Notes: a model not told the origin generated them from the letters alone. A stretch of DNA of 64,000 bases from Candidatus Omnitrophota bacterium (GCA_021108075.1 JAIORP010000135.1:23938-87937), one strand, 5' to 3'; positions 2,539 to 41,026 are shown, numbered from the stretch's first letter. Numbers and translations: made by a program.

Positions 2539-2916
2539 ATGAAAAAAATTCTGGTCATTGATGATGATTTAACCGACTTAAGAATTATCGATAAAAATAT
2601 TTCCTCCCATAATTATGAAGTCATCACAGCCGCTACTCCTCAAGATGGCCTGAATAAAGCAAAAGAAATAAAACCTGATCTCATTATTCTGGATATTATC
2701 ATGCCGGATATCGATGGTGCGGAGGTTTATAGTCTGCTGAAAAAAGAACCTGAAACACACAATATCCCTGTCATTTTTTTGACAGCAGCTTTAGATAAAG
2801 AGAAAAATGAACAAGTATTAGGGCCCGACATAGAGGAAGACTTTTTTAATATCATTGCCAAACCATTCAACGAAAAAGAAGTGATTGATCGCATTAAAAG
2901 CATTATTGGCGAATAA
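2539..2916 (+). CDS. single-domain response regulator (CheY-like receiver)
   Basis: MKKILVIDDD...PDLIILDIIMPDIDG...FLTA...KPF: canonical REC acidic pocket, phospho-Asp, Thr and Lys positions. Confidence 0.85.
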   Translation: MKKILVIDDDLTDLRIIDKNISSHNYEVITAATPQDGLNKAKEIKPDLIILDIIMPDIDGAEVYSLLKKEPETHNIPVIFLTAALDKEKNEQVLGPDIEEDFFNIIAKPFNEKEVIDRIKSIIGE

Positions 2917-3345: not shown

Positions 3346-4110
3346 ATGAATATCTTTAAACGACCAATAAAAAAATTACTCAATTATATCAAAGTGATAA
3401 AATCAACGTTAATGACAAAAATCATTACGATGACCACTGTCTTAATTCTTTTAATTGCCCTTGAGCACCTTTTTTTTGTGCTCCACATGAAAAAAGAATT
3501 ACTACTCTTTCATGCTCATTCAAGCCATTCTTTTGTTGAACTTGTCAAAAAAGAATTATTAACAGTCGCCTTACCTGGTCAGGACCCGACAAAGAATGTC
3601 AGTGATCTTGAGCACAAAATTCATCAATATCACAAAGAACAATGCACCGAATACGAACGCCATGTGAATGAATCAATCCGCACTAATATTTTCCGAGATT
3701 TAGTCATCCTCATTATTTTTATGAGCATCCTCTTATCTTTAACTTATCACGCGTTAAAGCCTATCAACACCCTGACTAAAGCGATTTCTGAAATTAACAC
3801 CGGAAACTTTGATTATGATTGGAGCATCCAGACGACAGATGAGCTTGCATTTATGAGTGAATCCATAAACATAATGAGACGAAACCTCAAACGCATAGCG
3901 TTATCAAGGCAGGAACTAAACAAAGAAATTGCTGAACGAAAAAAAATAGAGCAGATATTAATCGAAGAAAAACACAACTTAGAAGTTTTTCAAAAAGCGG
4001 CAGTCGACCAAGAAATGCACATTATCAAACTTAAAAAGACGATAAACAACTTTATGACCAAAAAAGGACTCACACCCAAATATCGGATGAGTGAAAATAT
4101 TGAATTATGA
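3346..4110 (+). CDS. membrane protein with two TM segments, HAMP-like linker and coiled coil (sensor input module)
   Basis: Hydrophobic segments IITMTTVLILLIALEHLFFVL and LVILIIFMSILLSLTY, followed by a HAMP-like region (PINTLTKAISEINTGNFDYDWSIQTTDELAFMSESINIMRRNL) and a heptad-rich tail. Same frame as the downstream kinase gene but separated by stops. Confidence 0.6.
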   Translation: MNIFKRPIKKLLNYIKVIKSTLMTKIITMTTVLILLIALEHLFFVLHMKKELLLFHAHSSHSFVELVKKELLTVALPGQDPTKNVSDLEHKIHQYHKEQCTEYERHVNESIRTNIFRDLVILIIFMSILLSLTYHALKPINTLTKAISEINTGNFDYDWSIQTTDELAFMSESINIMRRNLKRIALSRQELNKEIAERKKIEQILIEEKHNLEVFQKAAVDQEMHIIKLKKTINNFMTKKGLTPKYRMSENIEL

Positions 4111-4173
4111 CCTTCAATGTTAAATCTCTCATAAAATATCATTCCGGATCACATTAATAAAGCACCAATCTTT

Positions 4174-6690
4174 ATGTCTAATAACGCGCGATATGAAATC
4201 GACACGATCATCCAAACGGCAATAGACGGGTTTTGGATAAACGATTTGGATGGAAACTTCAAAAAAGTCAACAACAAGTTCTGTGAGATGATCGGTTATG
4301 CTGAGGAAGAACTATTATTAATGTCTCTGGCAGACATTGAAGCGGTCGAAAAGCCTTCAGAAACAAAGGAACATATTCAAAAAATTATGAGCAATGGCTC
4401 AGACCAATATGAATCATGTTTAAAATGCAAAAACGGACAAATTATTGATGTTGAAATTAAAATCTCACATTTAGAACCCGATAATATCCAAATTGCGTTT
4501 GCCAAAGATATTACAGAAAAAAACATAGCCAACAAATCAATCAAAGAAAGCGAAGCATTATTTAGCGCGCTTTATGAACATTCGAGCGATTCGATTATGT
4601 TGTTGGATAACCGCGGTTTTTTTGACTGTAATCCGGCGGCATTACATACTTTTGGTTACCCGGCTAAAAAAGCATTCTGCCAACTGCACCCTAAAGATTT
4701 ATCTCCTCCAAAGCAACCGAATGGAAAAAATTCAATGAACCAAATGAATAACTATATCGGTGAGGCCATCAAACACTCAATTTGCCGATATGAATGGACA
4801 TTTAAAAAAAAGGATGAATCTGTTTTTCCGGCTGAGGTTATCCTCAACACGATCGAGATGCATGGAAAAATCATTATTCAAAATGTCGTTCGAAATATTG
4901 CAAATCGAAAAAAGGCTGAAGATGACCTCATCACCGCTAAAACTCAAGCAGAAAAAAACGAAATTAAGGCGTATAAAGCCCTCGTCGAAGTCGAAAGGAC
5001 CCAAAAGGCCAATATCAGCATGATGGAGAACGCGATCCTGGCTAAAGAAAAATTAGAACATCAATCTCATCAATTGAAAAAAGCGCGATTAAAAGCTGAA
5101 CAAGCCTCAAAAGCAAAGAGTGATTTCCTTTCAAACATGAGCCATGAGATTAGAACCCCCATGAACACAATTTTAGGTTTCAGCAAGCTTTTAAAACGCT
5201 CTGAATTAACGTCAAAACAATCTCATTATTTAAACCTCGTATTATCCAGTGGGGATTATCTGCTTGAACTGATTAATAACATCTTAGACCTGTCCAAGTC
5301 AGAAGCTGAACGAACCCAACTTGAACAGATCGATTTTAATATTGAAAAACTTGCTGATAATGTTCTTAAAATCGGGCAATCAAAAATCGACAAAAAAAAT
5401 ATTGAATTTTATCTCTACATTCACCCGGATGTTCCGGAAGAATTAAATGGAGACCCAACACGCCTGCGACAAATGTTGATCAATTTGATTGGTAATGCCA
5501 TCAAATTCACGGATCAAGGGCACGTTGGGCTGATCATCCAAAAAGAAACAGTAAATAAAGTCAATGTCCCTGACTGGACAGAAAATGAAGACCAATGTTT
5601 CTTACGATTTTGTGTTGAAGACTCAGGAATCGGTGTGCCAAAAGAAAAAAACGAATTCATATTTGATGTCTTTTCTCAAGCAGACACATCAACCACAAGA
5701 CAATACGGAGGAACAGGATTAGGTCTTGCCATATGTAAAAATTACGCCCAATTGATGAAAGGAAAAATATGGGTCGAATCCGAAGGAAACAACGGCAGTA
5801 AGTTTATCTTTAACGCCCTCTTATTTAAATCCAAAAAGCGGGTCCAAAAAGCACTGCCGGAAGCCTTCAGGGACCTAATAACAAGCAAAACAATCCATAT
5901 CATTGATGATAACTTTACGATCAGTCAGCATTTAAAACATATCTGTACAGACATTGGGTTCAAAAACATCAAATGTGACAACACTCCCGAATATTTATAT
6001 GAAACAAAAAACGCCAATGACAATATCCCGGATATCATATTGATAGATATTCTTCTTGAGAACGATAAATCTTTTCAATTGGTCCATCAGGCCTCAAAGC
6101 AAGACCATCTGAAATCCATAAAAATAATTGGAATGACATCCAGCATGGACGATCTTGAGCCTGAAAACATAAAAAAAGAAGGTTTTTTAGGACTCCTAAC
6201 GAAACCTGTAACAAAAAATGATTTGTTACACATTTTGGCTAGCAATTATGATTTTAAAGACATATTCAGTGCTGATGAGCTTCAGCAAGAAAAAAATGAG
6301 ATGACATGCAAAGGACTTAAAATCCTTGTCGTCGATGACAATATTCCCAATCAAGCCCTGATCAAATCCTATTTCCGCGTTCTCGGCTGCATCGGAGATT
6401 ATGCCGGCAATGGCCAAGAGGCTGTTGAAAAAATAAAAAAAAACAACTATGACGTTTGCTTAATGGACTTACAAATGCCGGTAATGGGGGGGCAGGAAGC
6501 GACCACAATAATCAGAAAAGGCATTAACAAAAATATTCCCATACTAGCCCTTACGGCTGACGTCGTACAGGAAGATAAAGAAAAAGCGCTCGCGACAGGA
6601 ATGAACGATTATTTAACGAAACCCATCACCTTATCCCGACTAAAAGAAAAAATCCTTAAATACAGTCAAAAAAAAATCGACTCAAAATAA
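4174..6690 (+). CDS. hybrid sensor histidine kinase (PAS-PAS-HisKA-HATPase_c-pseudoREC-REC)
   Basis: PAS-like N-terminal repeats; H-box SHEIRTPMNTILGF; N, G1 and G2 boxes (IGNAIKFT, DSGIGV, GGTGLGLAI); C-terminal receiver KILVVDDN...VCLMDLQMPVMGG...LALTA...KP. Confidence 0.85.
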   Translation: MSNNARYEIDTIIQTAIDGFWINDLDGNFKKVNNKFCEMIGYAEEELLLMSLADIEAVEKPSETKEHIQKIMSNGSDQYESCLKCKNGQIIDVEIKISHLEPDNIQIAFAKDITEKNIANKSIKESEALFSALYEHSSDSIMLLDNRGFFDCNPAALHTFGYPAKKAFCQLHPKDLSPPKQPNGKNSMNQMNNYIGEAIKHSICRYEWTFKKKDESVFPAEVILNTIEMHGKIIIQNVVRNIANRKKAEDDLITAKTQAEKNEIKAYKALVEVERTQKANISMMENAILAKEKLEHQSHQLKKARLKAEQASKAKSDFLSNMSHEIRTPMNTILGFSKLLKRSELTSKQSHYLNLVLSSGDYLLELINNILDLSKSEAERTQLEQIDFNIEKLADNVLKIGQSKIDKKNIEFYLYIHPDVPEELNGDPTRLRQMLINLIGNAIKFTDQGHVGLIIQKETVNKVNVPDWTENEDQCFLRFCVEDSGIGVPKEKNEFIFDVFSQADTSTTRQYGGTGLGLAICKNYAQLMKGKIWVESEGNNGSKFIFNALLFKSKKRVQKALPEAFRDLITSKTIHIIDDNFTISQHLKHICTDIGFKNIKCDNTPEYLYETKNANDNIPDIILIDILLENDKSFQLVHQASKQDHLKSIKIIGMTSSMDDLEPENIKKEGFLGLLTKPVTKNDLLHILASNYDFKDIFSADELQQEKNEMTCKGLKILVVDDNIPNQALIKSYFRVLGCIGDYAGNGQEAVEKIKKNNYDVCLMDLQMPVMGGQEATTIIRKGINKNIPILALTADVVQEDKEKALATGMNDYLTKPITLSRLKEKILKYSQKKIDSK

Positions 6691-6738
6691 ATCATATTCC
6701 TATTCATTAAAAATCTAATCAATGCTAATATATCGACA

Positions 6739-7074
6739 GTGGAAAAATTAGATATTAATTTTCTTAATTGCGCCAATCAACTTGGTCTTAGCTTGGAAGA
6801 CTATAAAGAATTATTAACGATATCACTCGCGGATGCCAATCAAGATATCATGCGGTTGGAAACAATTATTGAAAATAAACAAGAAGATCAATATTTTCAA
6901 GTCATCCATCATCTCAAGGGTACTCTTTGTTCACTGATGATTAAAAGCGTGACAGATACGATTTCGACAATGAATGATCTTGCCCAAAAAAAACAAAATT
7001 TAAACCAAATTCCAAAATTATATTCCGTCCTTAAACAAAGGATAAATCAACTCAATATCAATTTAAATGAATAA
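6739..7074 (+). CDS. histidine phosphotransfer (Hpt) domain protein
   Basis: Hpt signature HHLKGTLCSLMI (HxxKG); small all-helical protein between the kinase and receiver genes. The start is a GTG with no RBS, so the true start is uncertain. Confidence 0.6.
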   Translation: MEKLDINFLNCANQLGLSLEDYKELLTISLADANQDIMRLETIIENKQEDQYFQVIHHLKGTLCSLMIKSVTDTISTMNDLAQKKQNLNQIPKLYSVLKQRINQLNINLNE

Positions 7075-7104
7075 TTTAATATTTTCAGAAGGAGGATGTG
7101 CGTG

Positions 7105-7497
7105 ATGTGGAAAATTTTAGTTGTTGATGATAATGAAAGAAATGTCGAACTTATCGTTGAGACACTCGAAGGCATTGCTAAATGCCAAACAGCTAAAAAT
7201 GGAGAAGAAGCTCTGACCGCTTATAATACCGCCATTACAGGCCAAAACGCTTTTGATGTTGCCTTATTGGATGTCGCCATGCCTGGTATTGATGGAATAG
7301 ATGTATTGAAGGCCATTCGAGCGAAGGAGGAAGAGCGGGGGATCCCATTTGGTGAAGGCATGCCGATTATTATGGTCACGGCAAACAAAGAACCGTTTAT
7401 CAAGGCCTATCGTACCGGTTGTGACGACTACATCTTAAAGCCAATCGATCCAGAGAAACTCATCACAATGATTGAAGAAAAGCTTTCTAACAAATAG
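7105..7497 (+). CDS. single-domain response regulator (CheY-like)
   Basis: MWKILVVDDNERN...LLDVAMPGIDG...IIMVTA...LKP; GGAGG RBS 9 nt upstream of ATG 7105 (the track ORF starts at 7096). Confidence 0.85.
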   Translation: MWKILVVDDNERNVELIVETLEGIAKCQTAKNGEEALTAYNTAITGQNAFDVALLDVAMPGIDGIDVLKAIRAKEEERGIPFGEGMPIIMVTANKEPFIKAYRTGCDDYILKPIDPEKLITMIEEKLSNK

Positions 7498-7550
7498 TAT
7501 TTGCCTTCGAGGTACGATGTTATTATACACCCGGTTTTCCATAAAGACAT

Positions 7551-10500
7551 ATGTCTAAGAGCAAAATCACATTACCCCAAACTGTTTATGTCGATAAAGA
7601 TAAATGCATTAACTGTCATGCCTGTATTTCCGCCTGTCCTGTAAAATATTGCAATGATGGAAGTGGTACGGTTGTCAGTATCAACTCCGATCTCTGCATT
7701 GCCTGCGGAAAATGTATCCAAACCTGCTCTCATCAGGCCCGTTTTTATACCGACGATTTGCCGGCCCTCCAACGGGCCATTCACCGACAAGAAAGAATCA
7801 TTGCTGTCGTCGATCCGTCTATCGCTGCAAATTTCCAACATCAATTCTTAAACTTAAATGGATGGTTAAAAAGTTTCGGTGTTCATGCCGTTTTTGATAT
7901 CAGTTTTGGTGCTGAACTATGTGTCAAAAGCTATGTCGAATATATTCAGAAACAATCACCTCCCATTATCATCATACAATCTTGCGCCGCTATCGTCAGT
8001 TATATCGAAATGTATCAGCCGGAACTGCTACCTTATCTAGCGCCTATTGACAGCCCGATGATACATACAATCAAGATGATACGAAAATACTATCCTCAAT
8101 ACTCCGACCACAAAATCGCGGTGCTTTCACCTTGTCTCGCAAAAAAGAGAGAACTTCATGAAACAAATATGGGAGACTTTTACATTGCCGATCTTTCCCT
8201 CAAGCAATATATCAAAGACAACAATGTTGAACTATCCAGCTTTCCTGCCATTGATTATGATGATCCATCGGACGAAAGGGCTGTCGTTTTTCCATCTCCA
8301 GGGGAATTACTTCGTACCTTAAAACGTTGGATTCCGAATATGAGCTATCTGGCCCGCGAGATTGAAGGAACAGAAACGATCTATGATTATCTAAAAAAAC
8401 TTCCGGCTATTTTAAACAAGGAAAAAATCAACACACCGCTTTTGATTGATTGTTTAAATTGTGAACTAGAATGTACCGGAGAACCCCTCACCTTAAACAA
8501 AAATAAATCTGTTGAAAAAATTGAATATTGGATGCAACAAAAAAACAAAGCCATGCAAATAATACATCGACAGGATCAATCAAATCAAGACATAAACATC
8601 AATGACATCGTATCAAAACATTGGTGTGAACAGCTATATCACAGGAGTTATCTTGATCTATCAGATTCCGTGCAGATTAAAAACCCCACGCTAGCAGAAC
8701 TGCAGGCAATTTTTGAAACCATGCATAAGTATTCAGAAAAGGATATCATCAATTGCAGCTCTTGCGGTTATGGCAAGTGCGAAAACATGGCAAAAGCCAT
8801 CTATAACAAGCTGAATCGGCCTGAAAATTGTCATCATTATCTCGCCCAAAAATCTGATATCAGGAAGAATAAAATTCAGTTAAACGAAAAACGTTTGAAA
8901 CACATCCTGGATACAACTCTCGAAGGTTTTGTCCAGGTCAATAAATCAGGATACATTCAAATGGCCAATGAAGCCATGGCGAATATATTGGGGGCCACAC
9001 CAGATAAAATCATCAATCATCCGATATCGAAGTTTATTTCGCCGCTTCAAGACATCGACTTTGGGAACATTATAAACCTCAAAAATCTTACGAAACATAA
9101 ACTCGAAGTTACGCTTTCCAAATTAGATGGATCGACAATATACAGTTTATTCCACATAAATATTTTGACAGATGAAAACAACCAACCTATTGGCTATTTT
9201 GCTTTGGTCAGTGATATTACAAATCTTAAAAACACGGAAAAAGAATTAAAAAAATTCCAGGATCATTTGCAGCAGCTCGTTGAAGAACGAACGCAGGAAT
9301 TACAAAAAATAAATTTCCAGCTTGAAGAAGAAGTTACTCAGCGAAGAAAAGAGCAAAATAAAATTCAAGAAAGTGAACAGGAAATCCGCCGAATTATGAA
9401 TACGATTCCTCATGCGGTCCTAGAATTAAAAAATCGTCAAATCGTCTTTGCCAACGCTGCCGTTGTCGGCGTATTTGGCTGGCAAGCCAATGAACTCATT
9501 GGAAAAACGACACAAATTCTGTATTTGGATGATAACGAATTCGATAAAATCGGTCAATATTTTTATCCCGTACTAGCCAAACAGGGGATTCATCATGGTG
9601 AATTCAATATAAAGAAAAAAAACGGACGCAATATTATTTGTATGATCAGTGCATCGTTCGTAGGCAAAGAAACGGATAACGAGAGAGTGATCGCTGTTTA
9701 TGAAGACATAACAGAACGCAAACGGGCAGAAACAGCCCTCCATCTGGCTAAAGAGGCGGCAGAAGAAGCCAATCGCTTGAAATCTCAATTTGTTTCAAAT
9801 GTGTCACATGAAATCAGAACACCCCTCAATTGCATTATTGGTTTTGCTGATGTCATCTTGCAATCCGAAGACCTAAACAGCATCCACCAACAGGCTGAAA
9901 TCATATTAAATGAATCTGAGACACTCCTCAATCTCATTAACGACCTTTTAGATCATGCTAAAATTGAGGCTGGTAAATTGAATATCGATCAACATGGTTT
10001 CGACCTCTATGGCCTTATCAATCAAATTGTGCAAACCATGCGGATCCATGCCAATAAAAAAAATTTGCAATTTTATGCTTCCATTGAGAAAACTGTTCCT
10101 CAATATGTGATTGGTGACAGTTTGCGAATCCATCAAATCATTATAAACCTACTCAGTAATGCCCTAAAATTCACCCATGTAGGATCCATCACATTACTCA
10201 TTGAATCCTTTGATAAAAAAAAGGATCAAGTCACTCTTCGCTTTTCCATTATTGATACAGGAATAGGAATATCCAGAGAACAACAAAACAAAATATTTGA
10301 AAGTTTTACGCAAGCGGATGGAAGCACAACCAGAAAATATGGGGGAACAGGACTAGGTACAACCATTGCCAAAGATCTTGTACAGATTATGCACGGACAA
10401 ATGGGGGTCTCAAGTGAACAAGGTAAAGGAAGCACTTTTTGGTTCTCCTTACAGTTTGAACGATGCACAGACCTAAGCAAGGTTAAAAAATTTCATCAAA

Positions 10501-11312
10501 AGAAACAAAAACAGTTGGGAGACAACAGGATAAAAAAAAATACTCAATTTAATATTCTGGTTGCTGAAGACTACACACCCAATCAAGAATTAATAAAACT
10601 CCTCCTAAGTAGCGCAGGTTTTCAGTTCTCTATCGTCTCGAACGGCCTTGAAGTGATTGATATCTGCCGCCAGTCAACTTTCGATATCATCTTGATGGAC
10701 GTTCAAATGCCGGAATTAGACGGCATCGCCACCGCCTTGCATATCCGAAATAATATGGAGGCATTAAAAACGATCCCCATCATTGCCCTAACCGCCCACG
10801 CCAACAAGGCAATTGTCGAAAAATGTTTTAAAGCAGGGATGAATGATATTCTAAATAAACCAATTAGGAAGGAAGAACTGCTGCAGGTCCTGGATAAATA
10901 TCTGAAGAACAAACCTGGCCAAGCAACGAATAACGGTCAAAATACGGCTTTTGACAGAGATACTATGCCGCTGCATTATAATGAAATCATAAAAGAATTT
11001 GGTGGTAATAAAATTTTGCTGGATACCGTCACGAATCAATTCATCACCAATGTTGGCGGCCAAATTCTGATTATGCAGGACGCGATCAAAAATAAACAAT
11101 TTGAGATACTTAGAAAGGAAATACATAAAATTAGGGGCGGCGCAGCCAACCTAACAGCCCAATCTTTGGCTGATATTGCCGAAGAAATTGAATCTTTAGC
11201 AAAACAAAAAAATTATATAAACCTCAATAATCTCATGAAAAACTTCGTATCTGAATATAAGCGCCTAAAAGAATATGTAGGGAGTGGATATAAAAATATT
11301 GGCAAAAACTAA
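7551..11312 (+). CDS. multidomain hybrid histidine kinase with N-terminal 2x[4Fe-4S] ferredoxin and [FeFe]-hydrogenase H-domain-like (HydS-like sensory) module, then PAS-PAS-HisKA-HATPase_c-REC-Hpt
   Basis: Ferredoxin motifs CINCHACISACP and CIACGKCIQTCS. H-domain-like region: FDISFGAE, SPCLAKKRE (cf. MPCxxKKxE), degenerate L1 QSCAAIV (cf. TSCCPxW), L3-like IDCLNCELECTGEP. Cx2Cx4Cx16C motif: CSSCGYGKCENMAKAIYNKLNRPENC. H-box SHEIRTPLNCIIGF; ATP-lid GGTGLGTTI. Receiver ILVAEDYTPN...ILMDVQMPELDG...ALTA...KP. C-terminal Hpt HKIRGGAANL. Confidence 0.85.
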   Translation: MSKSKITLPQTVYVDKDKCINCHACISACPVKYCNDGSGTVVSINSDLCIACGKCIQTCSHQARFYTDDLPALQRAIHRQERIIAVVDPSIAANFQHQFLNLNGWLKSFGVHAVFDISFGAELCVKSYVEYIQKQSPPIIIIQSCAAIVSYIEMYQPELLPYLAPIDSPMIHTIKMIRKYYPQYSDHKIAVLSPCLAKKRELHETNMGDFYIADLSLKQYIKDNNVELSSFPAIDYDDPSDERAVVFPSPGELLRTLKRWIPNMSYLAREIEGTETIYDYLKKLPAILNKEKINTPLLIDCLNCELECTGEPLTLNKNKSVEKIEYWMQQKNKAMQIIHRQDQSNQDININDIVSKHWCEQLYHRSYLDLSDSVQIKNPTLAELQAIFETMHKYSEKDIINCSSCGYGKCENMAKAIYNKLNRPENCHHYLAQKSDIRKNKIQLNEKRLKHILDTTLEGFVQVNKSGYIQMANEAMANILGATPDKIINHPISKFISPLQDIDFGNIINLKNLTKHKLEVTLSKLDGSTIYSLFHINILTDENNQPIGYFALVSDITNLKNTEKELKKFQDHLQQLVEERTQELQKINFQLEEEVTQRRKEQNKIQESEQEIRRIMNTIPHAVLELKNRQIVFANAAVVGVFGWQANELIGKTTQILYLDDNEFDKIGQYFYPVLAKQGIHHGEFNIKKKNGRNIICMISASFVGKETDNERVIAVYEDITERKRAETALHLAKEAAEEANRLKSQFVSNVSHEIRTPLNCIIGFADVILQSEDLNSIHQQAEIILNESETLLNLINDLLDHAKIEAGKLNIDQHGFDLYGLINQIVQTMRIHANKKNLQFYASIEKTVPQYVIGDSLRIHQIIINLLSNALKFTHVGSITLLIESFDKKKDQVTLRFSIIDTGIGISREQQNKIFESFTQADGSTTRKYGGTGLGTTIAKDLVQIMHGQMGVSSEQGKGSTFWFSLQFERCTDLSKVKKFHQKKQKQLGDNRIKKNTQFNILVAEDYTPNQELIKLLLSSAGFQFSIVSNGLEVIDICRQSTFDIILMDVQMPELDGIATALHIRNNMEALKTIPIIALTAHANKAIVEKCFKAGMNDILNKPIRKEELLQVLDKYLKNKPGQATNNGQNTAFDRDTMPLHYNEIIKEFGGNKILLDTVTNQFITNVGGQILIMQDAIKNKQFEILRKEIHKIRGGAANLTAQSLADIAEEIESLAKQKNYINLNNLMKNFVSEYKRLKEYVGSGYKNIGKN

Positions 11313-11358
11313 AAATATAGTATATAAATGTAATATATCTAAAAAAGGAGTTCTTCCT

Positions 11359-11760
11359 ATGCGTATTTTAATCGTTGATGATGATTATGTCAGCCGAACC
11401 AAGTTGAAAGCGTTATTGTCGATGTACGGGGACTGTGACACAGTTCCAAATGGAGAACTTGCTTTAGAATTTTTTAATAATGCTCATTCTGAAAGCGTAC
11501 CTTATGATCTTATAACTTTGGACATAGATATGCCGGGCATGAATGGTCATGAAGTGATTGACAAAATGTCAGAATGGGAAATGGCAAATGAGATTGATGC
11601 CACAAAATCAGCTAAGCTACTGATGATAACTATCAAACAGAACTCGGAAGACATTATGTCTTCTTTTAGAAAGGGGTGTCACGATTATATAAAAAAACCC
11701 GTAACACAATCCAATATTCAAGTTGCCCTTGAAAATATTGGGCTTATGAAGAACCTTTAG
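11359..11760 (+). CDS. single-domain response regulator
   Basis: AAAAAAGGAG RBS then ATG 11359; MRILIVDDDYVSR...LITLDIDMPGMNG...LMIT...KKP. Confidence 0.8.
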   Translation: MRILIVDDDYVSRTKLKALLSMYGDCDTVPNGELALEFFNNAHSESVPYDLITLDIDMPGMNGHEVIDKMSEWEMANEIDATKSAKLLMITIKQNSEDIMSSFRKGCHDYIKKPVTQSNIQVALENIGLMKNL

Positions 11761-11802
11761 AATAATATCAATCAAGCAGTTTAAACGAAAGGATGCTGGA
11801 CC

Positions 11803-12651
11803 ATGTTGTTAAGATTTCTGATTATTTTAATTTGTCTGATATGTTTGCCAATGTCTGTAGTACATGCCCAAGTTGACCAAGAAAATTCAGACGACTTATA
11901 TGAATGGCAACTACGTGAATATCCAAACATTCATGGACAATATAATGCGGGAAGAGAACGTTACAATGAAGCATTAGCAGAAAAACACCTAAGACTAAAA
12001 AACACAAAGAAAAAATTGCTCAAAGAAAACAGCATGATGAAAGTTGACATTAAAGAGCAAAAATCTTTACTCCACCTTCAAGACAAAAGAATTAAAGAGC
12101 TACAAAAATTCAATGAAAGGCTTCGCGAAGAATGGGAAGCGTTAGACACGGCGAATAAAGCTAAAGAAGCGGACAAACAAAGATTGGTGGAAGACACTTT
12201 AGCTAAAAAGGCTGAAATTGAATTGCAGAAAGCAAATAACATAACACTGTCTGAAGAAGCTGAAATCCTAAAAGAAGAATTCGCTCTAAAAAATTCTGAA
12301 TATGCTGAACTCAATTCATTCTATGAAGAAAAAGAAATGGAAGTGGCTCAGGCGCAAGATAGCGTTGATCGTAAACAAAAAGAATATGATGAGTTGAAAT
12401 CGAACAACGAAATGTTATCTAGTGAATATGAAGAAAAGCAACGAGAATACAGTGAATTAGAAGAACTCGTTCTCATGCAAAAAGAAGAAAATGAGCGCAT
12501 TGAAAAAGAACTGGATCAAGACTTAGAATCCTTTTACAGCAAGTTATTGCGTTTCTATGAACAAGAAGGCACAGAACTTCGTGAAAAGCTCGAAGACTAT
12601 AAAGGAAGAAAAGTAGAAGTTGAAAGCAAGCTAGAAGATGAGCAATTGTGA
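11803..12651 (+). CDS. secreted coiled-coil protein
   Basis: Signal peptide MLLRFLIILICLICLPMSVVHAQ; remainder is E/K/L-rich heptad sequence. Confidence 0.6.
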   Translation: MLLRFLIILICLICLPMSVVHAQVDQENSDDLYEWQLREYPNIHGQYNAGRERYNEALAEKHLRLKNTKKKLLKENSMMKVDIKEQKSLLHLQDKRIKELQKFNERLREEWEALDTANKAKEADKQRLVEDTLAKKAEIELQKANNITLSEEAEILKEEFALKNSEYAELNSFYEEKEMEVAQAQDSVDRKQKEYDELKSNNEMLSSEYEEKQREYSELEELVLMQKEENERIEKELDQDLESFYSKLLRFYEQEGTELREKLEDYKGRKVEVESKLEDEQL

Positions 12652-12740
12652 TTCAGATGACTATTGTGACGAACCACAACGATACCATCAACATCAAATT
12701 TCCTTTAATTACATTATATGAACATTGGGAAAGCAACTGT

Positions 12741-12803
12741 TTGAATTTAAGGTGCTTGCTGCGGAGTCAAAAACAATGCCCCGTGCAAGCACCTTAAATT
12801 CAA
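12741..12803. promoter_or_regulatory. 19-bp perfect inverted repeat (TTGAATTTAAGGTGCTTGC / GCAAGCACCTTAAATTCAA) with 25-nt spacer; strong stem-loop
   Basis: Read directly: positions 12741-12759 are the exact reverse complement of 12785-12803. GCGG/CCGT in the loop can extend the stem. About 90 nt downstream of the 11803-12651 gene; no U-tract follows. Confidence 0.6.
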
Positions 12804-13218
12804 CAACGGCAAACACTTTTGATCCATCCAGAAAGACATTCTCGGTCAAAAAAACCATTCATGGCCAGTCATTCCAATACATCCCTATCCGAAACATATC
12901 AAACCAAATCCTGGCCCGGCTGTCATAAATGCACTTATCAAATGCATTATCGTGACAACAACTTATTGTCTTAAACCTCTATATTTCAATCAGTTTCAAC
13001 CTTAAAATAAAGTACTAGATTTTTTTTTCATTTTGTAGTATATTTATGTCTATCGAATGTTGTCCGCATTTACTGCATAAAATATGATTATTGGAGGTGA
13101 TTGCACGTGGGGGAATGGAAAGAAGATAAATTAATCAAGTCTACAAATAAAGACAGAGATATTTTCCCTTGGGACGAAGCGGATATATACTTTTAGGATG
13201 TTATCGCAACAAACAGTC

Positions 13219-13260
13219 AAAACCCTATCTTGCATTGTGACAAGATAGGGTTTTCTGTTT
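13219..13260 (+). terminator. rho-independent terminator-like hairpin
   Basis: AAAACCCTATCTTG-cattgtga-CAAGATAGGGTTTT (14-bp stem, 8-nt loop) followed by CTGTTT; directly downstream of a 29-codon ORF at 13105-13194. Confidence 0.6.
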
Positions 13261-13823
13261 AAATGGCCTTGCGATATACAGCACATGAACAAAAACATAT
13301 TAATTTTTTTAATTCACAACCAGCCATTATTATCTCAACAATGAGATCATACGGGTACGATTTAAAAAACGTTACTATCAGGCCATCAGGAAAAATTTTC
13401 ATCTTTGTTTTTTTACAGGCCAAACGTACTAAAATTTAATAATAAATCCTCAAATCAGTGTAACCGTTGTTAACTTTGAGCAATTTACCGGCTACACCAT
13501 CCAAGGCAAAACACACATCATCCCCAAAAATAAAAGGATCTGTTCCATATTGACAAATGGGAAAATAAAATTACCCAACCCATTTCAGAACCTTTAGTAC
13601 AAAATGTTCAAAAAGAAACGAAAGGCTCCTTTAATTACGAAACTCACCTGCCATAAAATCCTAAATACATGATTGAAGTATCTGTTTCCAGCAAAAATTT
13701 ATCCCCCATATTGCCACAAGATTAAATCCTCTGAATCAAATAGTCATTATGGTTGCAAAATAAAAATAATACGATATAATTTTAAATATCAAAATTTTCA
13801 TTTATAAACCATCAGGAGCAAAT

Positions 13824-15350
13824 ATGAACAAAGAAGATTTTTTAGCCATCCTGCATAAAGGAACTGAATTAGAGGCATCCGATGTTCATCTTTCCGCAAA
13901 CAAACCACCGATTTTTCGTCTTTATGGCAATTTACAATACTCGAAGCAGGCATCCATATCAAATTCACAGTTAAAGAGTATGCTCTATGATTTATTATTA
14001 CCTGAACAAATTGCTAAATTCGAAGAAGAAAAAGAGCTTGATTTTTCTTATAGAGAAATGGCGGAATATCAATTTCGAATCAACGCCGGACTTGATCGTG
14101 GAAATATTGCAATCACAGCACGCATCACTCCCGCAAAAATAAAGTCTTTGGAAGAATTAAATCTTCCAAAAGTTGTTCAGGACATCGCTTATGAACGAAA
14201 AGGGCTGGTTCTGATTGCCGGGGTAGCAGGATGCGGAAAGAGTACAACATTAACATATCTTATCGATTTGATTAATCGCAATAGACAGTGTAAAATTGTT
14301 ACCATTGAAGACCCGATCGAATATATCCACGAATCAAATAAGTCTTTAATTATGCAAAGAGAAGTCGGCGCGGATACCCATACTTTTGCGGATGCCATCA
14401 AACACGCCCTCCGCCAGGACCCGGATGTTATCGTCATTGGAGAAATGCGTGACTTGGAATCGATGTCCATGGCAATTACAGCTGCAGAAACAGGCCACCT
14501 CGTATTAACAACTGTTCACGCTCCGAATGCGACCGAAACCATCAACCGTATCATTGATGTTTTTCCCCAGGCAAATCGTGACCAAATCAATATTCAGTTA
14601 GCTGAGAACTTCTTAGCTGTTATGGCACAAATGCTCATTCCCCGTGCAGACAGCAAAGAACGCATACTGGCCACAGAGGTTATTTATACAAACATTGCTA
14701 TCCGCAACCTGCTCCGGAGAGGATCACTCGTCGAACTTCGTGGACAAATTGACGCCGATGAAAATCCTAAAGTTCAATCATTTGAGGTTTGTCTTTCTAA
14801 ACTCTATCTCAAGAACCTCATCACGAAAGAGACAGCCATCGACTATTCAAAATTCCCGGAAAAACTAAAGTTCACAAATCCGAATGATTTTAAAAGTGTT
14901 TTTGGGACAAAAAAGAAAACTAAGGACAAAAAAAGTTCCAAATACGAGCCCGATGAAATGAATACGTTCGAAAAAGCCTTAATTATTGAACAAGACGAAG
15001 ACGATCGCGGTAAAATGGGAGAAATATGTAAACATGAAGGGATCCCGACGATTTATCTCGCTCCGTCCGGAGAGCAAGGACTCATCATTGCCAATAAAGT
15101 CAAGCCTGATTTAATCATTATTGACATGCTAATCGTTGATATTGATCTGGAAAAACTTTGTGAGCATTTCAAAGAAATCGTTGGAGACGGAATCAAAATT
15201 ATTATGATTACCGGAAGATTTAGGCCGGAAGACCCCCAAAAAGTATCCGATTTAGGTGCTATTGATTTGGTTGTCAAAACTGCTGATCTGCGGTTACTAT
15301 CTAAATCACTGCAAAAGCTTCAAGGAACATATAATCCCGAAAATAAATAA
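13824..15350 (+). CDS. PilT/PilU-family type IV pilus retraction ATPase fused to a C-terminal receiver (REC) domain
   Basis: PilT N-terminus (ASDVHLSANKPPIFRLYG), Walker A GVAGCGKSTTL, IVTIEDPIEY, Walker B/His-box IVIGEMRD...TGHLVLTTVHA. After ~aa 380 a receiver-like domain: ALIIEQDEDD / KPDLIIIDMLIVDID / IKIIMITG / DLVVKTAD (D, D, T, K positions present). Confidence 0.85.
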   Translation: MNKEDFLAILHKGTELEASDVHLSANKPPIFRLYGNLQYSKQASISNSQLKSMLYDLLLPEQIAKFEEEKELDFSYREMAEYQFRINAGLDRGNIAITARITPAKIKSLEELNLPKVVQDIAYERKGLVLIAGVAGCGKSTTLTYLIDLINRNRQCKIVTIEDPIEYIHESNKSLIMQREVGADTHTFADAIKHALRQDPDVIVIGEMRDLESMSMAITAAETGHLVLTTVHAPNATETINRIIDVFPQANRDQINIQLAENFLAVMAQMLIPRADSKERILATEVIYTNIAIRNLLRRGSLVELRGQIDADENPKVQSFEVCLSKLYLKNLITKETAIDYSKFPEKLKFTNPNDFKSVFGTKKKTKDKKSSKYEPDEMNTFEKALIIEQDEDDRGKMGEICKHEGIPTIYLAPSGEQGLIIANKVKPDLIIIDMLIVDIDLEKLCEHFKEIVGDGIKIIMITGRFRPEDPQKVSDLGAIDLVVKTADLRLLSKSLQKLQGTYNPENK

Positions 15351-15383: not shown

Positions 15384-15938
15384 TTATTTTTCTCCCATCA
15401 ATTTATTCAGTCGATCAAAAGCTCTACTCCGGGCATTTTTCTTTTTCTGTTCTAACTCATTCTTATCTTCGCGCAACTTATATATCAATGAAAGAGAAAA
15501 CACGATATCTTCAAAACAATAGTGAAATGAAATCCTGTGCGTATTCGAAAAGTCCGAAAGAATGACCATTCGGTTCCCTTTAATTGTTGTAGGGATACTG
15601 ATCTCAAAACTATGCTCCGTTTCTTTCATCAACTTCATCTTAACACCACCGGCAATCATATTAATCTGCTCAGCGATCCCGTCAATCACTTCACGATTAG
15701 CGTCATCCAGTGTTGAATGAATCATCCTGGATACGATTTGACAGGCACTGCTGTTAGGTAAGCAAATCGCAATACTCCCTTCAATACTGCCGATAAAACC
15801 GATCGAACTGATAATGCATTCGTCGTCTAACATAACCTCATTTTCAATCTGCTTTGGGACTAACGATATCGTCGCAAGAAACGCGTCGGAAACAGACTCC
15901 TCCAATAACTTGCTTAAATGCTCTGATAATTCATTCAT
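15384..15938 (-). CDS. CheX/CheC-like chemotaxis phosphatase family protein
   Basis: 184 aa; segment DDANREVIDGIAEQINMIAGGVK resembles the CheX active-site region (E...N...G); low-complexity C-terminal tail. Confidence 0.55.
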   Translation of the reverse strand: MNELSEHLSKLLEESVSDAFLATISLVPKQIENEVMLDDECIISSIGFIGSIEGSIAICLPNSSACQIVSRMIHSTLDDANREVIDGIAEQINMIAGGVKMKLMKETEHSFEISIPTTIKGNRMVILSDFSNTHRISFHYCFEDIVFSLSLIYKLREDKNELEQKKKNARSRAFDRLNKLMGEK

Positions 15939-18765: not shown

Positions 18766-19146
18766 ATGAAAAAAATGAAAGAAAAAAGAAAATTTATTCG
18801 AACTAAATGGAAATATCCCGTTGTTATCTTTGGACCAAACAATGAAATTCTCAACGGACAAATCAGCAATATTTCTCTAACAGGAGCCTACATTACCCGT
18901 GTTTTCCCTTGCATACTCCGCGTGGGCGATATATTCAGTTTTAATATCATCCTTTCCGATATTGACCTCGACCTCCGTATCGAAGGTGATGCTATCGTCC
19001 TTCGACAAGAATCAACCATCGGAATAGGAGTCAAATTCACAAAATTCAACGCAGACGCGCTCATGCACCTTCGCAAAATTGTTACGTACAATCATGAGGA
19101 CACAGAAAGCACACCCGGTAAACCTAAAATCTTTTCAGACAATTAA
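18766..19146 (+). CDS. PilZ domain protein (putative c-di-GMP receptor)
   Basis: RKFIRTKWK (RxxxR) and NISLTGAYI (D/NxSxxG) motifs, about 20 aa apart. Confidence 0.7.
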   Translation: MKKMKEKRKFIRTKWKYPVVIFGPNNEILNGQISNISLTGAYITRVFPCILRVGDIFSFNIILSDIDLDLRIEGDAIVLRQESTIGIGVKFTKFNADALMHLRKIVTYNHEDTESTPGKPKIFSDN

Positions 19147-22995: not shown

Positions 22996-23394
22996 ATGGG
23001 GAGAAAAATTAAAATGACATTGATCAAAAATTTTCAAGTATCGCGACCTACTGTAAAATCAATTAAAACTTTTCTATCCAACTTCCTAGCTCATGTAAGG
23101 TCGCAACAGGGCAACCTATGCTTACGCACATTAACAAAAAAAATTTTATTTGAATTGAACGATAAAAACGTAAATACCGTTTCTCTGACAGGCAACTTTA
23201 CAGATTGGGACACCAAGGGCATCCCGCTTAAAAAGAATTGGCGTGGTATTTGGCGAATACAAATAAAATTGAACCCCGGAAAATATGAATATAAATTCAT
23301 AATCAATAAAAATGACTGGATTACTGATCCGACTAATCCAGAGACAGTCATAAATTCATTTGGAACCAGAAATTCAATAAGGATCGTTACTTAA
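22996..23394 (+). CDS. CBM48/AMPK-beta-type glycogen-binding domain protein
   Basis: VSLTGNFTDWDTKGIPLKKNWRGIWRIQIKLNPGKYEYKFIINKNDWITDP, typical of the CBM48 glycogen-binding module; alternative start at ATG 23014. Confidence 0.65.
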   Translation: MGRKIKMTLIKNFQVSRPTVKSIKTFLSNFLAHVRSQQGNLCLRTLTKKILFELNDKNVNTVSLTGNFTDWDTKGIPLKKNWRGIWRIQIKLNPGKYEYKFIINKNDWITDPTNPETVINSFGTRNSIRIVT

Positions 23395-23395
23395 T

Positions 23396-24562
23396 ATGAA
23401 AATAGCTATTTTATCTTGGGAATCAGCTCATTCAATTTATGTTGGTGGCGTTGCTATTCATGTTACAGAATTAGCCTGTTCATTAGAAAGAATCGGCCAC
23501 GAAGTTCATGTTTTTACCCGCATGGGACGTCATGACCACCCCCTTTATGAAAATATCCACGGAGTCCATTACCATCGCTGTCCTTTCAATTCGCATCCTG
23601 ATTTTATTGAAGAAGTTAACAATATGTGTCGAGCAATGGTCGATGCCGTTTTTCACACAGAAGATTATATGGGTGATCATTTTGATGTCGTCCATGCACA
23701 TGATTGGTTAACAGCCAATGCCATGATCTGGATAAAACGGGGGCGTGGCCGAAGAACAATCTTTACGATACATTCCACAGAATATGGCCGTTGCGGAAAT
23801 AATTTTTACGGTGGTGGTTCTGACCGCATTCGCGGAATAGAATGGCAGGGAGCTTATGAAGCCGACCGCGTTGTAACAGTTTCAGGCGCGCTTAAGAATG
23901 AAGTGCAATGGATATATAATATTCCTGAATGGAAAGTCGATATCATATATAATGGTATTAGTTGTCAAAATTATGATGGCTATATTGACCCTGGTGAAGT
24001 GCGTTCCCGCGTCCAGATCGGACCGGTTGATCCCATGGTGCTGTTTGCCGGGCGCATGTCCTCACAAAAGGGACCTGATATTCTTATGGAAGCCATCCCC
24101 AGTATTCTCCATTTTCATAACAACGCGAAGTTTGTTTTTGCCGGAGATGGAGACATGCGCGGACAGGTTGAACAACGCGCGCATCAGCTGGGAGTTGCCC
24201 ATGCAACTCGTTTTCTGGGACATCAATCGAGTTGGGCCTTAACAGATTTATTCAAAGCAACCGACTGCGTCTGCGTTCCGAGCCGCAATGAACCTTTCGG
24301 CATTGTTATTCTTGAAGCTTGGAGTGCGGGTAAGCCAGTTGTCGCCTCAGTTAACGGAGGCCCTTCAGAAATTATTTGGCACGATGTTACAGGTTTTAAA
24401 ATTAACGCTCATCCTGAGTCCGTCGCCTGGGGTGTCGGTTCACTTTTTGCTGATTTTGAACATGGACGCTGGATGGGAAGAAATGGAAGGATTGCCGCCG
24501 AGACTATATTTTCTTGGGATACTATAGCGGATCAAACTCTATCCGTTTATAATTGGTGGTAA
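23396..24562 (+). CDS. glycosyltransferase, glycogen/starch-synthase-like (GT4/GT5 fold)
   Basis: N-terminal KIAILSWESAHSIYVGGVAIHV (glycogen-synthase-like G-rich loop); C-terminal EPFGIVILEAWSAGKPVVAS (EX7E motif); genomic context with CBM48 and GH57 genes. Confidence 0.75.
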   Translation: MKIAILSWESAHSIYVGGVAIHVTELACSLERIGHEVHVFTRMGRHDHPLYENIHGVHYHRCPFNSHPDFIEEVNNMCRAMVDAVFHTEDYMGDHFDVVHAHDWLTANAMIWIKRGRGRRTIFTIHSTEYGRCGNNFYGGGSDRIRGIEWQGAYEADRVVTVSGALKNEVQWIYNIPEWKVDIIYNGISCQNYDGYIDPGEVRSRVQIGPVDPMVLFAGRMSSQKGPDILMEAIPSILHFHNNAKFVFAGDGDMRGQVEQRAHQLGVAHATRFLGHQSSWALTDLFKATDCVCVPSRNEPFGIVILEAWSAGKPVVASVNGGPSEIIWHDVTGFKINAHPESVAWGVGSLFADFEHGRWMGRNGRIAAETIFSWDTIADQTLSVYNWW

Positions 24563-24571
24563 TAAATTACA

Positions 24572-25702
24572 ATGGTACCGCAGAGTAAAAAAATAAAAAA
24601 ACATAATGATTCACAAATTCAGCACATCAATGATGAAAATTATGTCTTGCCAACTGATTACGGCATAAGCCAGATAACCCTTCTAACCCGCGATCCTTTT
24701 TGGATCTACGCCTACTGGGAAATTAATCCTAAGAGCTTGAAAGAGAATCAAACAATATCCATGCATGTCAAGAAACATGGATGTTTTACGGTTCGCATTT
24801 ATGATGTTTCACAGATCCACTTCAACGGCCAAAACGCCAATCATACATTTGACGTCGATATCGATGTCTCGCATGAGAATGAAAAATACATCCAGGTCTG
24901 GGGTGATAACGCTAATTATTGTGCGGAGATTGGCTATCGAACCGCATCTGATGATTTCTTAGCCTTGGCGCGCTCAAATGTTATTCAAACACAACGATCA
25001 AGCCTTGCGGAACAGAATACTGTCACGTTAATGCAAACAAAAGAACATAACGGATCCTTTTTATTAGAGAACGTTAAGGATTACAGAAAAGACACGAAAA
25101 ATCTCACACCTGAAGTTAAACGATACCCTGTACCAGAACCCAATAAAAAACCAAAAAGTCCTTACGGCGATCAGACGCCATTATCGATTGACCATATTTG
25201 GAATTATTACAGCAAACTGACACCGTTGCTTCAAAAGGTCCGCCCAGGCAGGGAAGAAAAATTTCTGCGTCGTTTTAATCCTGAAGATTTAGAATTAAAT
25301 TCCTATGAGCTTGGTGAACCTTTAATTTCTCGACAATTCAAAATTAAAGCCTTGCGGGGCAGTTCCGACAACATCCATATACAGCAAGCAAGCAGTTCCG
25401 ATATACACGCTGAGGGATCACATTCTCTCGGGGCGAGTGAGAATAACAGCAATCAATCCAGACGACCGTTCTTTTTCGAAATAGGAACGGAATTAATTGT
25501 TTACGGAAGAACTGAACCGAATGCGAGTGTTTACTTTGATAACAGAAAAATACCGCTACGATCTGACGGCACATTCTCGATGAGATTATCCCTGCATGAA
25601 GGGACAATACCTCTTAACTTTATGGCCCAATCACATGATAAACTTGATAAACGTTCAATCTATACAGAAGCAACACGCTCAAAAACAACATATAAGCCAT
25701 AA
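24572..25702 (+). CDS. hypothetical protein within the alpha-glucan cluster
   Basis: 376-aa ORF; N-terminal LTRDPFWIYAYWEINPKSL; no catalytic motif recognised; lies in the same direction between the GT and GH57 genes. Confidence 0.5.
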   Translation: MVPQSKKIKKHNDSQIQHINDENYVLPTDYGISQITLLTRDPFWIYAYWEINPKSLKENQTISMHVKKHGCFTVRIYDVSQIHFNGQNANHTFDVDIDVSHENEKYIQVWGDNANYCAEIGYRTASDDFLALARSNVIQTQRSSLAEQNTVTLMQTKEHNGSFLLENVKDYRKDTKNLTPEVKRYPVPEPNKKPKSPYGDQTPLSIDHIWNYYSKLTPLLQKVRPGREEKFLRRFNPEDLELNSYELGEPLISRQFKIKALRGSSDNIHIQQASSSDIHAEGSHSLGASENNSNQSRRPFFFEIGTELIVYGRTEPNASVYFDNRKIPLRSDGTFSMRLSLHEGTIPLNFMAQSHDKLDKRSIYTEATRSKTTYKP

Positions 25703-25941
25703 ACCGAGATCTTGCCTGCCCTGATACGCGGGCACAGGAACCTTTGCTCGATATAAAACAGTGGAAAAAATTTCTACAAAATCGATCGCTTCATCCAATC
25801 TTAACGGTCAGATAAGCGGTGGTTCAGGCCAGATTCGCATTTCCCATTAATAATCTGGGAGAAATCAATTCGTTGCATCATTCAAACTAAATATTTTGCA
25901 GCAATATCACAATCATCAATATTTATAAAGGAGCATGATCA

Positions 25942-40498: not shown

Positions 40499-41026
40499 AT
40501 GGCTCAAAAGAAAAAAAATAAAATGAAAGTCTCAAAATCCAAAAGTCCCTACATCATTGTTAGAGGTTCTGATATCCACAATAAAGGCGTTTTTTCCAAA
40601 AAAAATATTCCGGGCGGAACGCGCATCATAGAATACATTGGTGAAAAAATCACCAAGAAAGAATCTGAACGGCGAGCTGATCTGCCCCTACAAAAAAACA
40701 AACAAAACCCGGAGTACGGGGCGGTCTACATCTTTGAACTCAACAAACGTTATGACATAGATGGTTATGTTACCTACAACACCGCTCGATACATCAACCA
40801 TTCTTGCTCTCCTAACTGTGAAACTCAAAATATTCGTGGACACATATGGATTATCGCCATAAAAGACATTCCCCGGGGGGGAGAATTAACATACAACTAC
40901 GGTTATGACATGGAAAACTATGAAGATCACCCCTGCCGTTGCCAATCTGATAATTGTATGGGCTATATTCTGGCAGAGGAACACTGGAAAAAACTAAAAA
41001 ACCGGAAACTTTCACTCAAGTCGTAA
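40499..41026 (+). CDS. SET-domain protein (putative protein-lysine methyltransferase) with post-SET Cys motif
   Basis: RYINHSCSPNC (NHSCxPN), GELTYNYGYD (ELTxDY-like), post-SET CRCQSDNC. Confidence 0.8.
   Translation: MAQKKKNKMKVSKSKSPYIIVRGSDIHNKGVFSKKNIPGGTRIIEYIGEKITKKESERRADLPLQKNKQNPEYGAVYIFELNKRYDIDGYVTYNTARYINHSCSPNCETQNIRGHIWIIAIKDIPRGGELTYNYGYDMENYEDHPCRCQSDNCMGYILAEEHWKKLKNRKLSLKS

Follow-up and report, generated by a model that had tools for sequence, protein, structure and literature searches.

Domain organization of ORF 7551..11312

The 64,000-nucleotide stretch of DNA analyzed here, called the window below, comes from Candidatus Omnitrophota bacterium (GCA_021108075.1, JAIORP010000135.1:23938-87937). 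Within a two-component signaling locus, its + strand holds an open reading frame (ORF) with an ATG start that encodes a protein of 1253 amino acids (aa). Two [4Fe-4S] ferredoxin motifs, an [FeFe]-hydrogenase H-domain, a Cx2Cx4Cx16C motif, two PAS domains, HisKA, HATPase_c, a receiver (REC) and a histidine phosphotransfer (Hpt) domain follow one another in this order (Table 1). The NCBI record, MCD4780836.1, labels the protein just "PAS domain S-box protein." An assembly or sequencing artefact was ruled out, because independent assemblies hold identical DNA (100%, zero differences).

The ferredoxin motifs are present as CINCHACISACP and CIACGKCIQTCS. The H-domain contains the motifs FDISFGAE, QSCAAIV (L1), SPCLAKKRE (L2), and IDCLNCELECTGEP (L3), and the C-terminal cluster motif, with cysteines C402, C405, C410, and C427, reads CSSCGYGKCENMAKAIYNKLNRPENC. 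A Pfam match to PF04060 ("FeS") on aa 400-427 stayed below threshold at 19.6 bits versus 23. All 16 cluster cysteines are retained: eight of the ferredoxin type, four at the H-site, and four in the C-terminal motif. The eight ferredoxin-type cysteines are all invariant in a 66-sequence alignment, and those of the C-terminal cluster are invariant or almost so in the family. In the kinase part an N box (NLLSNALKF), a G1 box (DTGIG), and a G2 box (GTGLG) were seen, and the phosphorelay residues H753, D1050, K1103, and H1192 are intact as well. The predicted protein is thus an intact "unorthodox" hybrid kinase that is joined via the two PAS domains and coiled-coil linkers to a putative 440-aa N-terminal iron-sulfur (Fe-S) module.

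This organization had been proposed in a first-pass annotation of the window, made without database searches. Every motif quoted there was found in the sequence. Pfam confirmed the two N-terminal ferredoxin motifs (Fer4 twice, aa 12-63) as well as the two PAS domains, the HisKA/HATPase_c transmitter, the receiver, and the Hpt domain behind the module, and the phosphorylatable residues of the relay are all in place. The surrounding island of three further receivers, a second hybrid kinase, a HAMP protein, and a stand-alone Hpt was also recovered. The Cx2Cx4Cx16C spacing, which had been ascribed there to a group C cluster, is the one given by Land et al. (PMC8163306) for group C/D enzymes. The motif had been placed about 75 aa after L3, but it begins about 90 aa past it.

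Table 1. Features of ORF 7551..11312 and of its surroundings (positions in the window)
Feature	Position	Strand	Basis or remark
Whole ORF	7551..11312	+	group C hydrogenase-like sensor fused to hybrid histidine kinase, 1253 aa
Two ferredoxin-type [4Fe-4S] motifs, C19/22/25/29 and C49/52/55/59	7584..7739	+	Pfam Fer4/Fer4_10, aa 12-63
H-domain, aa 82-316	7794..8498	+	Pfam PF02906, profile alignment, family comparison, AlphaFold2 and Foldseek
C-terminal Cx2Cx4Cx16C cluster motif, C402/C405/C410/C427	8754..8831	+	spacing as in PMC8163306
PAS domain 1, aa 458-557	8922..9221	+	Pfam PAS_9
PAS domain 2, aa 611-719, coiled-coil linker ahead of domain	9381..9707	+	Pfam PAS; sequence
HisKA (aa 744-808; H753 in SHEIRTPL) and HATPase_c (aa 855-970)	9780..10460	+	Pfam
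Receiver, aa 1002-1114; E1006/D1007, phospho-acceptor D1050, T1081, K1103	10554..10892	+	Pfam
Hpt, aa 1163-1220; H1192 in HKIRGG	11037..11210	+	Pfam
Stand-alone receiver	2539..2916	+	
HAMP-domain protein	3346..4110	+	first gene in tight cluster
Second hybrid kinase, PAS-PAS-HisKA-HATPase_c-REC-REC	4174..6690	+	
Stand-alone Hpt protein	6739..7074	+	
Stand-alone receiver	7096..7497	+	directly upstream of ORF 7551..11312
Stand-alone receiver	11359..11760	+	directly downstream; 133 aa as called, GTG start at 11284 in ORF list
282-aa protein, hydrophobic N terminus, long Glu/Lys-rich coiled-coil	11803..12651	+	no Pfam match; last gene in tight cluster
PilT/PilU-type ATPase with C-terminal receiver	13824..15350	+	
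CheX-type phosphatase	15384..15938	-	
PilZ protein	18766..19146	+	

Evidence for a hydrogenase-derived module

The N-terminal module was compared with [FeFe]-hydrogenases by profile, fold, and residue. Pfam Fe_hyd_lg_C (PF02906) matched aa 82-310 with E=1e-24 and 88 bits versus a gathering cut-off of 22.1, covering model positions 2-243 of 245. Solved [FeFe]-hydrogenases were matched both by phmmer and by the family profile, with a best E value of 1e-31 for the profile. An AlphaFold2 model, for which the 66-sequence alignment served as input, had a mean pLDDT of 92 and a pTM of 0.91. In a Foldseek comparison of the model with the PDB, the best 50 matches were all [FeFe]-hydrogenases (TM 0.57-0.66, E down to 2e-17). 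The H-domain assignment of the first-pass annotation therefore held in both the profile search and the structure prediction. The NCBIfam models for catalytic group A/B enzymes were far from their cut-offs (TIGR02512 and TIGR04105; 82.6 versus 405.95 bits and 119.5 versus 450 bits), as is expected of a sensory-type protein.

Residue equivalences, given in CpI numbering (Table 2), have two sources: the 225 relatives were aligned without gaps, and solved enzymes were aligned by profile. In both alignments C145, C195, C304, C308, and K198 form the full set of H-cluster Cys ligands plus the equivalent of K358. Several hallmarks of group C are present: C299 is replaced by a non-Cys residue and M353 by Ser, the Cx2Cx4Cx16C motif is there, and the C-terminal cluster is followed by a PAS domain. 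The catalytic hallmarks C299, M353, and M497 are missing. All close relatives carry group C-type architectures, with MCP, PP2C, PAS, or histidine kinase (HK) outputs. By its motifs, fold, and domain architecture, the ORF very probably belongs to the putatively sensory [FeFe]-hydrogenases of group C. The hydrogenase fold and ligands would also suit a catalytic hydrogenase that became fused to a kinase by chance. However, neither the proton-relay Cys nor either of the two pocket Met residues is present, the group A/B scores are low, and partner subunits are not encoded nearby, so that a catalytic role is highly improbable.

Table 2. Residues of the putative H-cluster site and their CpI equivalents
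Residue	CpI equivalent	Remark
D88	A230	acidic substitution
P89-S90	P231-S232	kept
S144	C299	proton relay in CpI
C145	C300	cluster ligand
A146	P301	
S168-P169	S323-P324	kept
S193	M353	
C195	C355	cluster ligand
K198	K358	kept; CN-binding lysine
E201	E361	kept
F247	F417	kept
E252	G422	acidic substitution
L302	M497	
C304	C499	cluster ligand
E307	G502	acidic substitution
C308	C503	bridging Cys
T309	N505	
E311	G507	acidic substitution

The L1 motif, which reads QPCPAIV in the family consensus and QSCAAIV here, had been described in the first-pass annotation as degenerate, with one of two Cys residues replaced by Ala. One Cys is indeed lost, but the register was one position off: S144 replaces the relay Cys, and A146 replaces a Pro. 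Loss of an L1 cluster ligand was ruled out, because C145 falls on CpI C300 both by the consensus and in the profile alignment. According to Chongdar et al., the C299 position of sensory enzymes is occupied by Ala in ~43%, Cys in 17%, Pro in ~10%, and Ser in ~10% of sequences. With Ser and Pro at such frequencies, a degenerate L1 is unremarkable, and Ser at this position is ordinary for group C rather than a special feature. The M353 position holds Gly, Ser, or Thr in the same survey (Ser in ~32%), and Leu at the M497 position is also found in the active TamHydS (PMC8163306).

Two side observations were made in the alignments. C301, the first Cys of DCLNC (8451-8453; CpI position 496), does not vary among the 66 aligned sequences and is conserved in the 225 group C relatives. 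Group A enzymes have no equivalent of it, and it might serve as an alternative ligand or as an alternative proton relay. For PDB chain 7q4v_A, the HydA1 chain of a solved HydABC complex, the HMMER alignments show TSCSPGW at L1; the Ser that stands there in the Cys300 ligand column may be native or a quirk of the alignment.

Acidic residues in the metal pocket

The real oddity of the protein is not L1 but the change of four small residues to acidic ones (A88D, G252E, G307E, and G311E) in the loops flanking the H-cluster ligands. The three Gly positions are Gly in 225/225 relatives and in each solved group A enzyme aligned, and two of them flank the bridging C308. Each of the three Glu residues is encoded by GAA.

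Deviations were counted at the 121 columns that are conserved in ≥90% of the family, 12 of which differ in ORF 7551..11312. Seven lie in the 29 columns of the motif loops (A88D, P144S, P146A, G252E, G307E, N309T, and G311E) and only five in the other 92, an enrichment with a Fisher p value of 0.008 for motif windows that were picked from the classical motifs once the deviations had been seen. The median number of motif deviations among the 225 relatives is 0 and the maximum 7, which ORF 7551..11312 equals. In every sub-region, the identity of the module to its relatives is within 1 SD of the relatives' mutual identity, and in the C-terminal cluster region it is at or above the family average. 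A module that is globally degenerate or fast-evolving was thus ruled out, and the normal identity points to a pocket-specific change, not general decay.

The same data bear on the idea that the module is a relic that senses nothing. The two PAS domains would then be the real inputs, and the N-terminal part would be a scaffold or a dimerisation element. Such a relic would match a number of pocket deviations that is tied for the family maximum, the NCBI label, which names PAS alone, and a locus without a link to hydrogen metabolism. However, the complete set of cluster cysteines, the normal sub-region identities, and the few deviations at conserved non-pocket positions make it unlikely, because a decaying domain would not hold this pattern over ~50% divergence.

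The A-to-D change at CpI A230 recurs in another divergent kinase-fused lineage (P0172, P0196, and P0206), but the Gly-to-Glu changes do not. The members of this lineage have 6-7 pocket-motif deviations and keep the invariant glycines. Pocket drift may therefore be recurrent among kinase-fused group C proteins. Judged by the alignments, the acidic pocket changes of ORF 7551..11312 are a lineage-specific remodeling.

Kinase-fused relatives

A search with the N-terminal 440 aa gave more than 2142 relatives at ~50% identity. Most of them continue into MCP signaling domains, and the others into PP2C/SpoIIE phosphatases, a lone PAS, or HisKA plus HATPase. HydDB divides the outputs of group C into C1 (histidine kinase-linked), C2 (chemotactic), and C3 (phosphatase-linked). 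The search with the full-length protein yielded at least 1309 matches below 1e-30. Fe_hyd_lg_C is paired with HisKA and/or HATPase_c in 120/120 of the clusters listed, and most add a receiver. About 40 of the best 120 clusters also have Hpt and hence the complete set of Fer4, H-domain, PAS, HisKA, HATPase, REC, and Hpt, at 34-52% identity. Sources among the clusters listed include Kapabacteria, Phycisphaerae, Smithellaceae, Anaerohalosphaeraceae, Hydrogenedentes, and Desulfobacterales. In 106 alignable kinase-fused relatives the hydrogenase anchor lies in the N-terminal part, at a median residue of 115; Cx2Cx4Cx14-18C follows the anchor in all 106, and an H-box stands further on in 98. The best match in the scanned collection of species-representative genomes had 46% identity.

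Histidine-kinase/HATPase fusions of group C hydrogenases have been described for Elusimicrobia. For Hydrogenedentota, proteins of groups C1 and C3 were reported to contain HATPase_C or His-kinase domains, with canonical P1-P3 motifs that were hard to find in C1. A unique fusion is ruled out by the same architecture in many phyla, and the covalent hydrogenase-kinase sensor is a known, widespread class. The first-pass annotation had regarded a covalent HydS-like kinase as undescribed. This is correct for its biochemistry: no kinase-fused group C member has been characterized biochemically, and the sensory enzymes studied in this way up to 2026 are TmHydS and TamHydS alone. As a fusion, however, it is neither unusual nor new, given the 120 clusters listed, HydDB C1, and the reports on Elusimicrobia and Hydrogenedentota. 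ORF 7551..11312 is apparently the first kinase-fused member noted in Omnitrophota, and it widens the class to this phylum.

The loci of three relatives with the same architecture (P0130, P0133, and P0168) were inspected. Their partners are REC or REC-HD proteins, and no hydrogenase, maturase, or pilus genes were found in these neighborhoods. The P0133 relative sits between a REC-HD (GYP-type) gene and genes for rubrerythrin and nitroreductase (L006, 12048-13215 beside P0133), a context suggesting that some members of the class may act in oxidative or redox stress.

Genomic neighborhood

Because the genes across 3346-12651 are separated by gaps of only 21-63 bp, this region looks like one operon. 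No hydE, hydF, hydG, or other hydrogenase gene was found from ~7.5 kb upstream of the window to the end of its annotated genes at ~50 kb (~57 kb in all). The maturases do occur in the phylum, since group A3 [FeFe]-hydrogenases are encoded by some Omnitrophota. Between the operon and the PilT-REC gene, 12652-13823 (1.17 kb) contained no ORF of ≥70 aa and no Rfam match, and an Rfam scan of the whole window gave no matches.

In the PilT/PilU-type ATPase, which is encoded beside CheX and near PilZ, a pilus motor is directly fused to a receiver of the two-component kind, an unusual combination. The ATPase is a candidate output of the relay, and the CheX phosphatase is a candidate modulator. As a guess, the PilT/CheX/PilZ neighborhood suggests control of type IV pilus activity; type IV pili are prominent in the biology of Omnitrophota. 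The output idea lacks comparative support, because the inspected loci of the three relatives contain no pilus genes.

Further features of the window lie farther downstream. On the + strand, frame 1 stays open over 50548-64000 for at least 4484 aa and runs past the 3' end of the window; this strand is strongly A-rich (AT skew ~0.4), and the sole Pfam match is a sub-threshold one to the coiled-coil "Filament." The frame fits the giant ORFs reported for Omnitrophota. A glycogen-type cluster at 22996-29074 (+) encodes a CBM48 protein, a GT4/GT5 synthase, DUF4912, a GH57 branching enzyme, and a second GH57 protein, in agreement with the glycogen synthesis reported for the phylum. At 40499-41026 (+), a SET-domain (lysine methyltransferase-like) protein is encoded in this bacterial genome.

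Proposed signal and phosphorelay

The reading that we favor, tentatively and from sequence comparison, is that ORF 7551..11312 encodes an Fe-S redox sensor in which the [2Fe] subcluster would be absent or strongly perturbed. With acidic residues at D88, E252, E307, and E311 and with P144S and P146A, sensing of redox state or of an electron donor by Fe-S clusters appears more likely than H2 sensing by a canonical H-cluster. The lack of hydEFG genes in the ~57 kb covered is in line with this. Depending on its redox or ligand state, the metal module would alter the conformation of the PAS domains and linkers, which would in turn set autophosphorylation at H753. The phosphoryl group would pass from H753 via D1050 to H1192 of the Hpt domain. 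Its next acceptors could be the single-domain receivers of the two flanking genes and perhaps also the PilT-REC ATPase, which is encoded 2.5 kb downstream. The cofactor content, the sensed signal, and the output are what we infer here.

Several points weigh against this proposal. The strongest is that most direct [2Fe] contacts are kept: K198 (K358), P89-S90, S168-P169, and F247 (F417), to which E201 and L302 can be added, the latter being the residue that also occurs in active TamHydS. Their retention fits a site that is still selected to hold the cofactor. The effect supposed for the new Glu and Asp side chains is deduced from their alignment position. Work on the CpI variant C299D shows that Asp can stand in for the proton-relay Cys, so that the new carboxylates, instead of blocking the site, could conduct protons. 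The enrichment of deviations in the motif loops depends on windows defined afterwards, and the absence of hydEFG over 57 kb says little for the whole genome. Finally, the step from cluster to PAS is hypothetical even family-wide.

These points lead to a genuine H2 sensor as a possible, though somewhat doubtful, alternative. The protein would then hold a complete H-cluster, HydEFG would be encoded elsewhere in the genome, and the acidic residues would tune the potential or give a proton path. H2 oxidation at a slow, sensory-type site would reduce the clusters and switch the kinase. Such a sensor would explain the conservation of the four Cys ligands, of K358, of the PS and SP loops, and of F417, and group C enzymes vary widely at C299, M353, and M497 yet bind the cofactor. 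Asp at C299 of CpI is the one substitution that preserves activity, the phylum has maturases, and the module is overall not fast-evolving. However, the sensor would have to accommodate Glu at three glycines that are invariant in the 225 relatives and in the solved enzymes, two of them beside the bridging C308, as well as Asp at CpI A230, and neither a hydrogenase nor a hydEFG gene lies in the ~57 kb around the ORF.

A more far-reaching variant is that the four-carboxylate pocket, with its cysteines kept, has been repurposed for a signal other than H2 (a metal ion, O2/reactive oxygen species, or a redox partner), and that the relay feeds the PilT-REC retraction ATPase and thereby pilus-driven behavior. 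Members of the Omnitrophota are putative predators and epibionts and rely on type IV pili. We consider this variant improbable.

At stake is whether group C [FeFe]-hydrogenases truly sense H2 and how the signal is passed on. Kinase-fused members offer a built-in readout as a class-wide property, since autophosphorylation with and without H2 would test H2 sensing directly. For first experiments, canonical-pocket relatives are better suited, and ORF 7551..11312 would be useful mainly as a natural variant or contrast. If the Fe-S redox sensor has indeed lost its [2Fe] site, it would show an H2 sensor drifting into a plain Fe-S redox sensor.

Comparison with known systems

One of the closest known systems is TmHydS from Thermotoga maritima (group C / M2f), which shares the two N-terminal [4Fe-4S] motifs and an H-domain with four Cys ligands. 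In both proteins the C299 position lacks Cys, M353 is replaced by a small residue, and the C-terminal Cx2Cx4Cx16C motif is followed by a PAS domain. However, TmHydS stops after one PAS domain and signals via separate partners, whereas ORF 7551..11312 goes on with PAS-HisKA-HATPase-REC-Hpt. By the published residues, the pocket of TmHydS has A131, G177, S267, and Y223 in place of S144, S193, L302, and F247. Unlike TmHydS, the Omnitrophota protein has Glu or Asp at four small-residue positions. The HK-fused group C proteins of HydDB C1, Elusimicrobia, and Hydrogenedentota have the same order of hydrogenase module, Cx2Cx4Cx16C, and H-box, but they keep the invariant Gly and Ala residues, with a median of 0 pocket deviations.

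The regulatory [NiFe]-hydrogenase system HoxBC/HoxJ (HydDB group 2b) is alike in principle, in that the H2 signal goes from a slow hydrogenase to a histidine kinase with a PAS domain. It differs in its unrelated metal site and fold and in having sensor and kinase as separate polypeptides, and its function is experimentally proven, whereas that of ORF 7551..11312 is predicted. A precedent for the proposed Fe-S redox sensor is given by eukaryotic Nar1/NARFL, in which the H-domain keeps the Fe-S cysteines without a [2Fe] subcluster. Nar1/NARFL are Fe-S assembly factors without signaling domains.

The output half resembles that of the unorthodox kinases of the ArcB/BarA/TorS type. These have the same HisKA-HATPase-REC-Hpt chain and operate a His-Asp-His-Asp relay, the key residues of which are all present here. 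ArcB, BarA, and TorS are membrane proteins with periplasmic or quinone-linked inputs, whereas the protein encoded by ORF 7551..11312 is predicted to be soluble and to receive its input from an Fe-S module.

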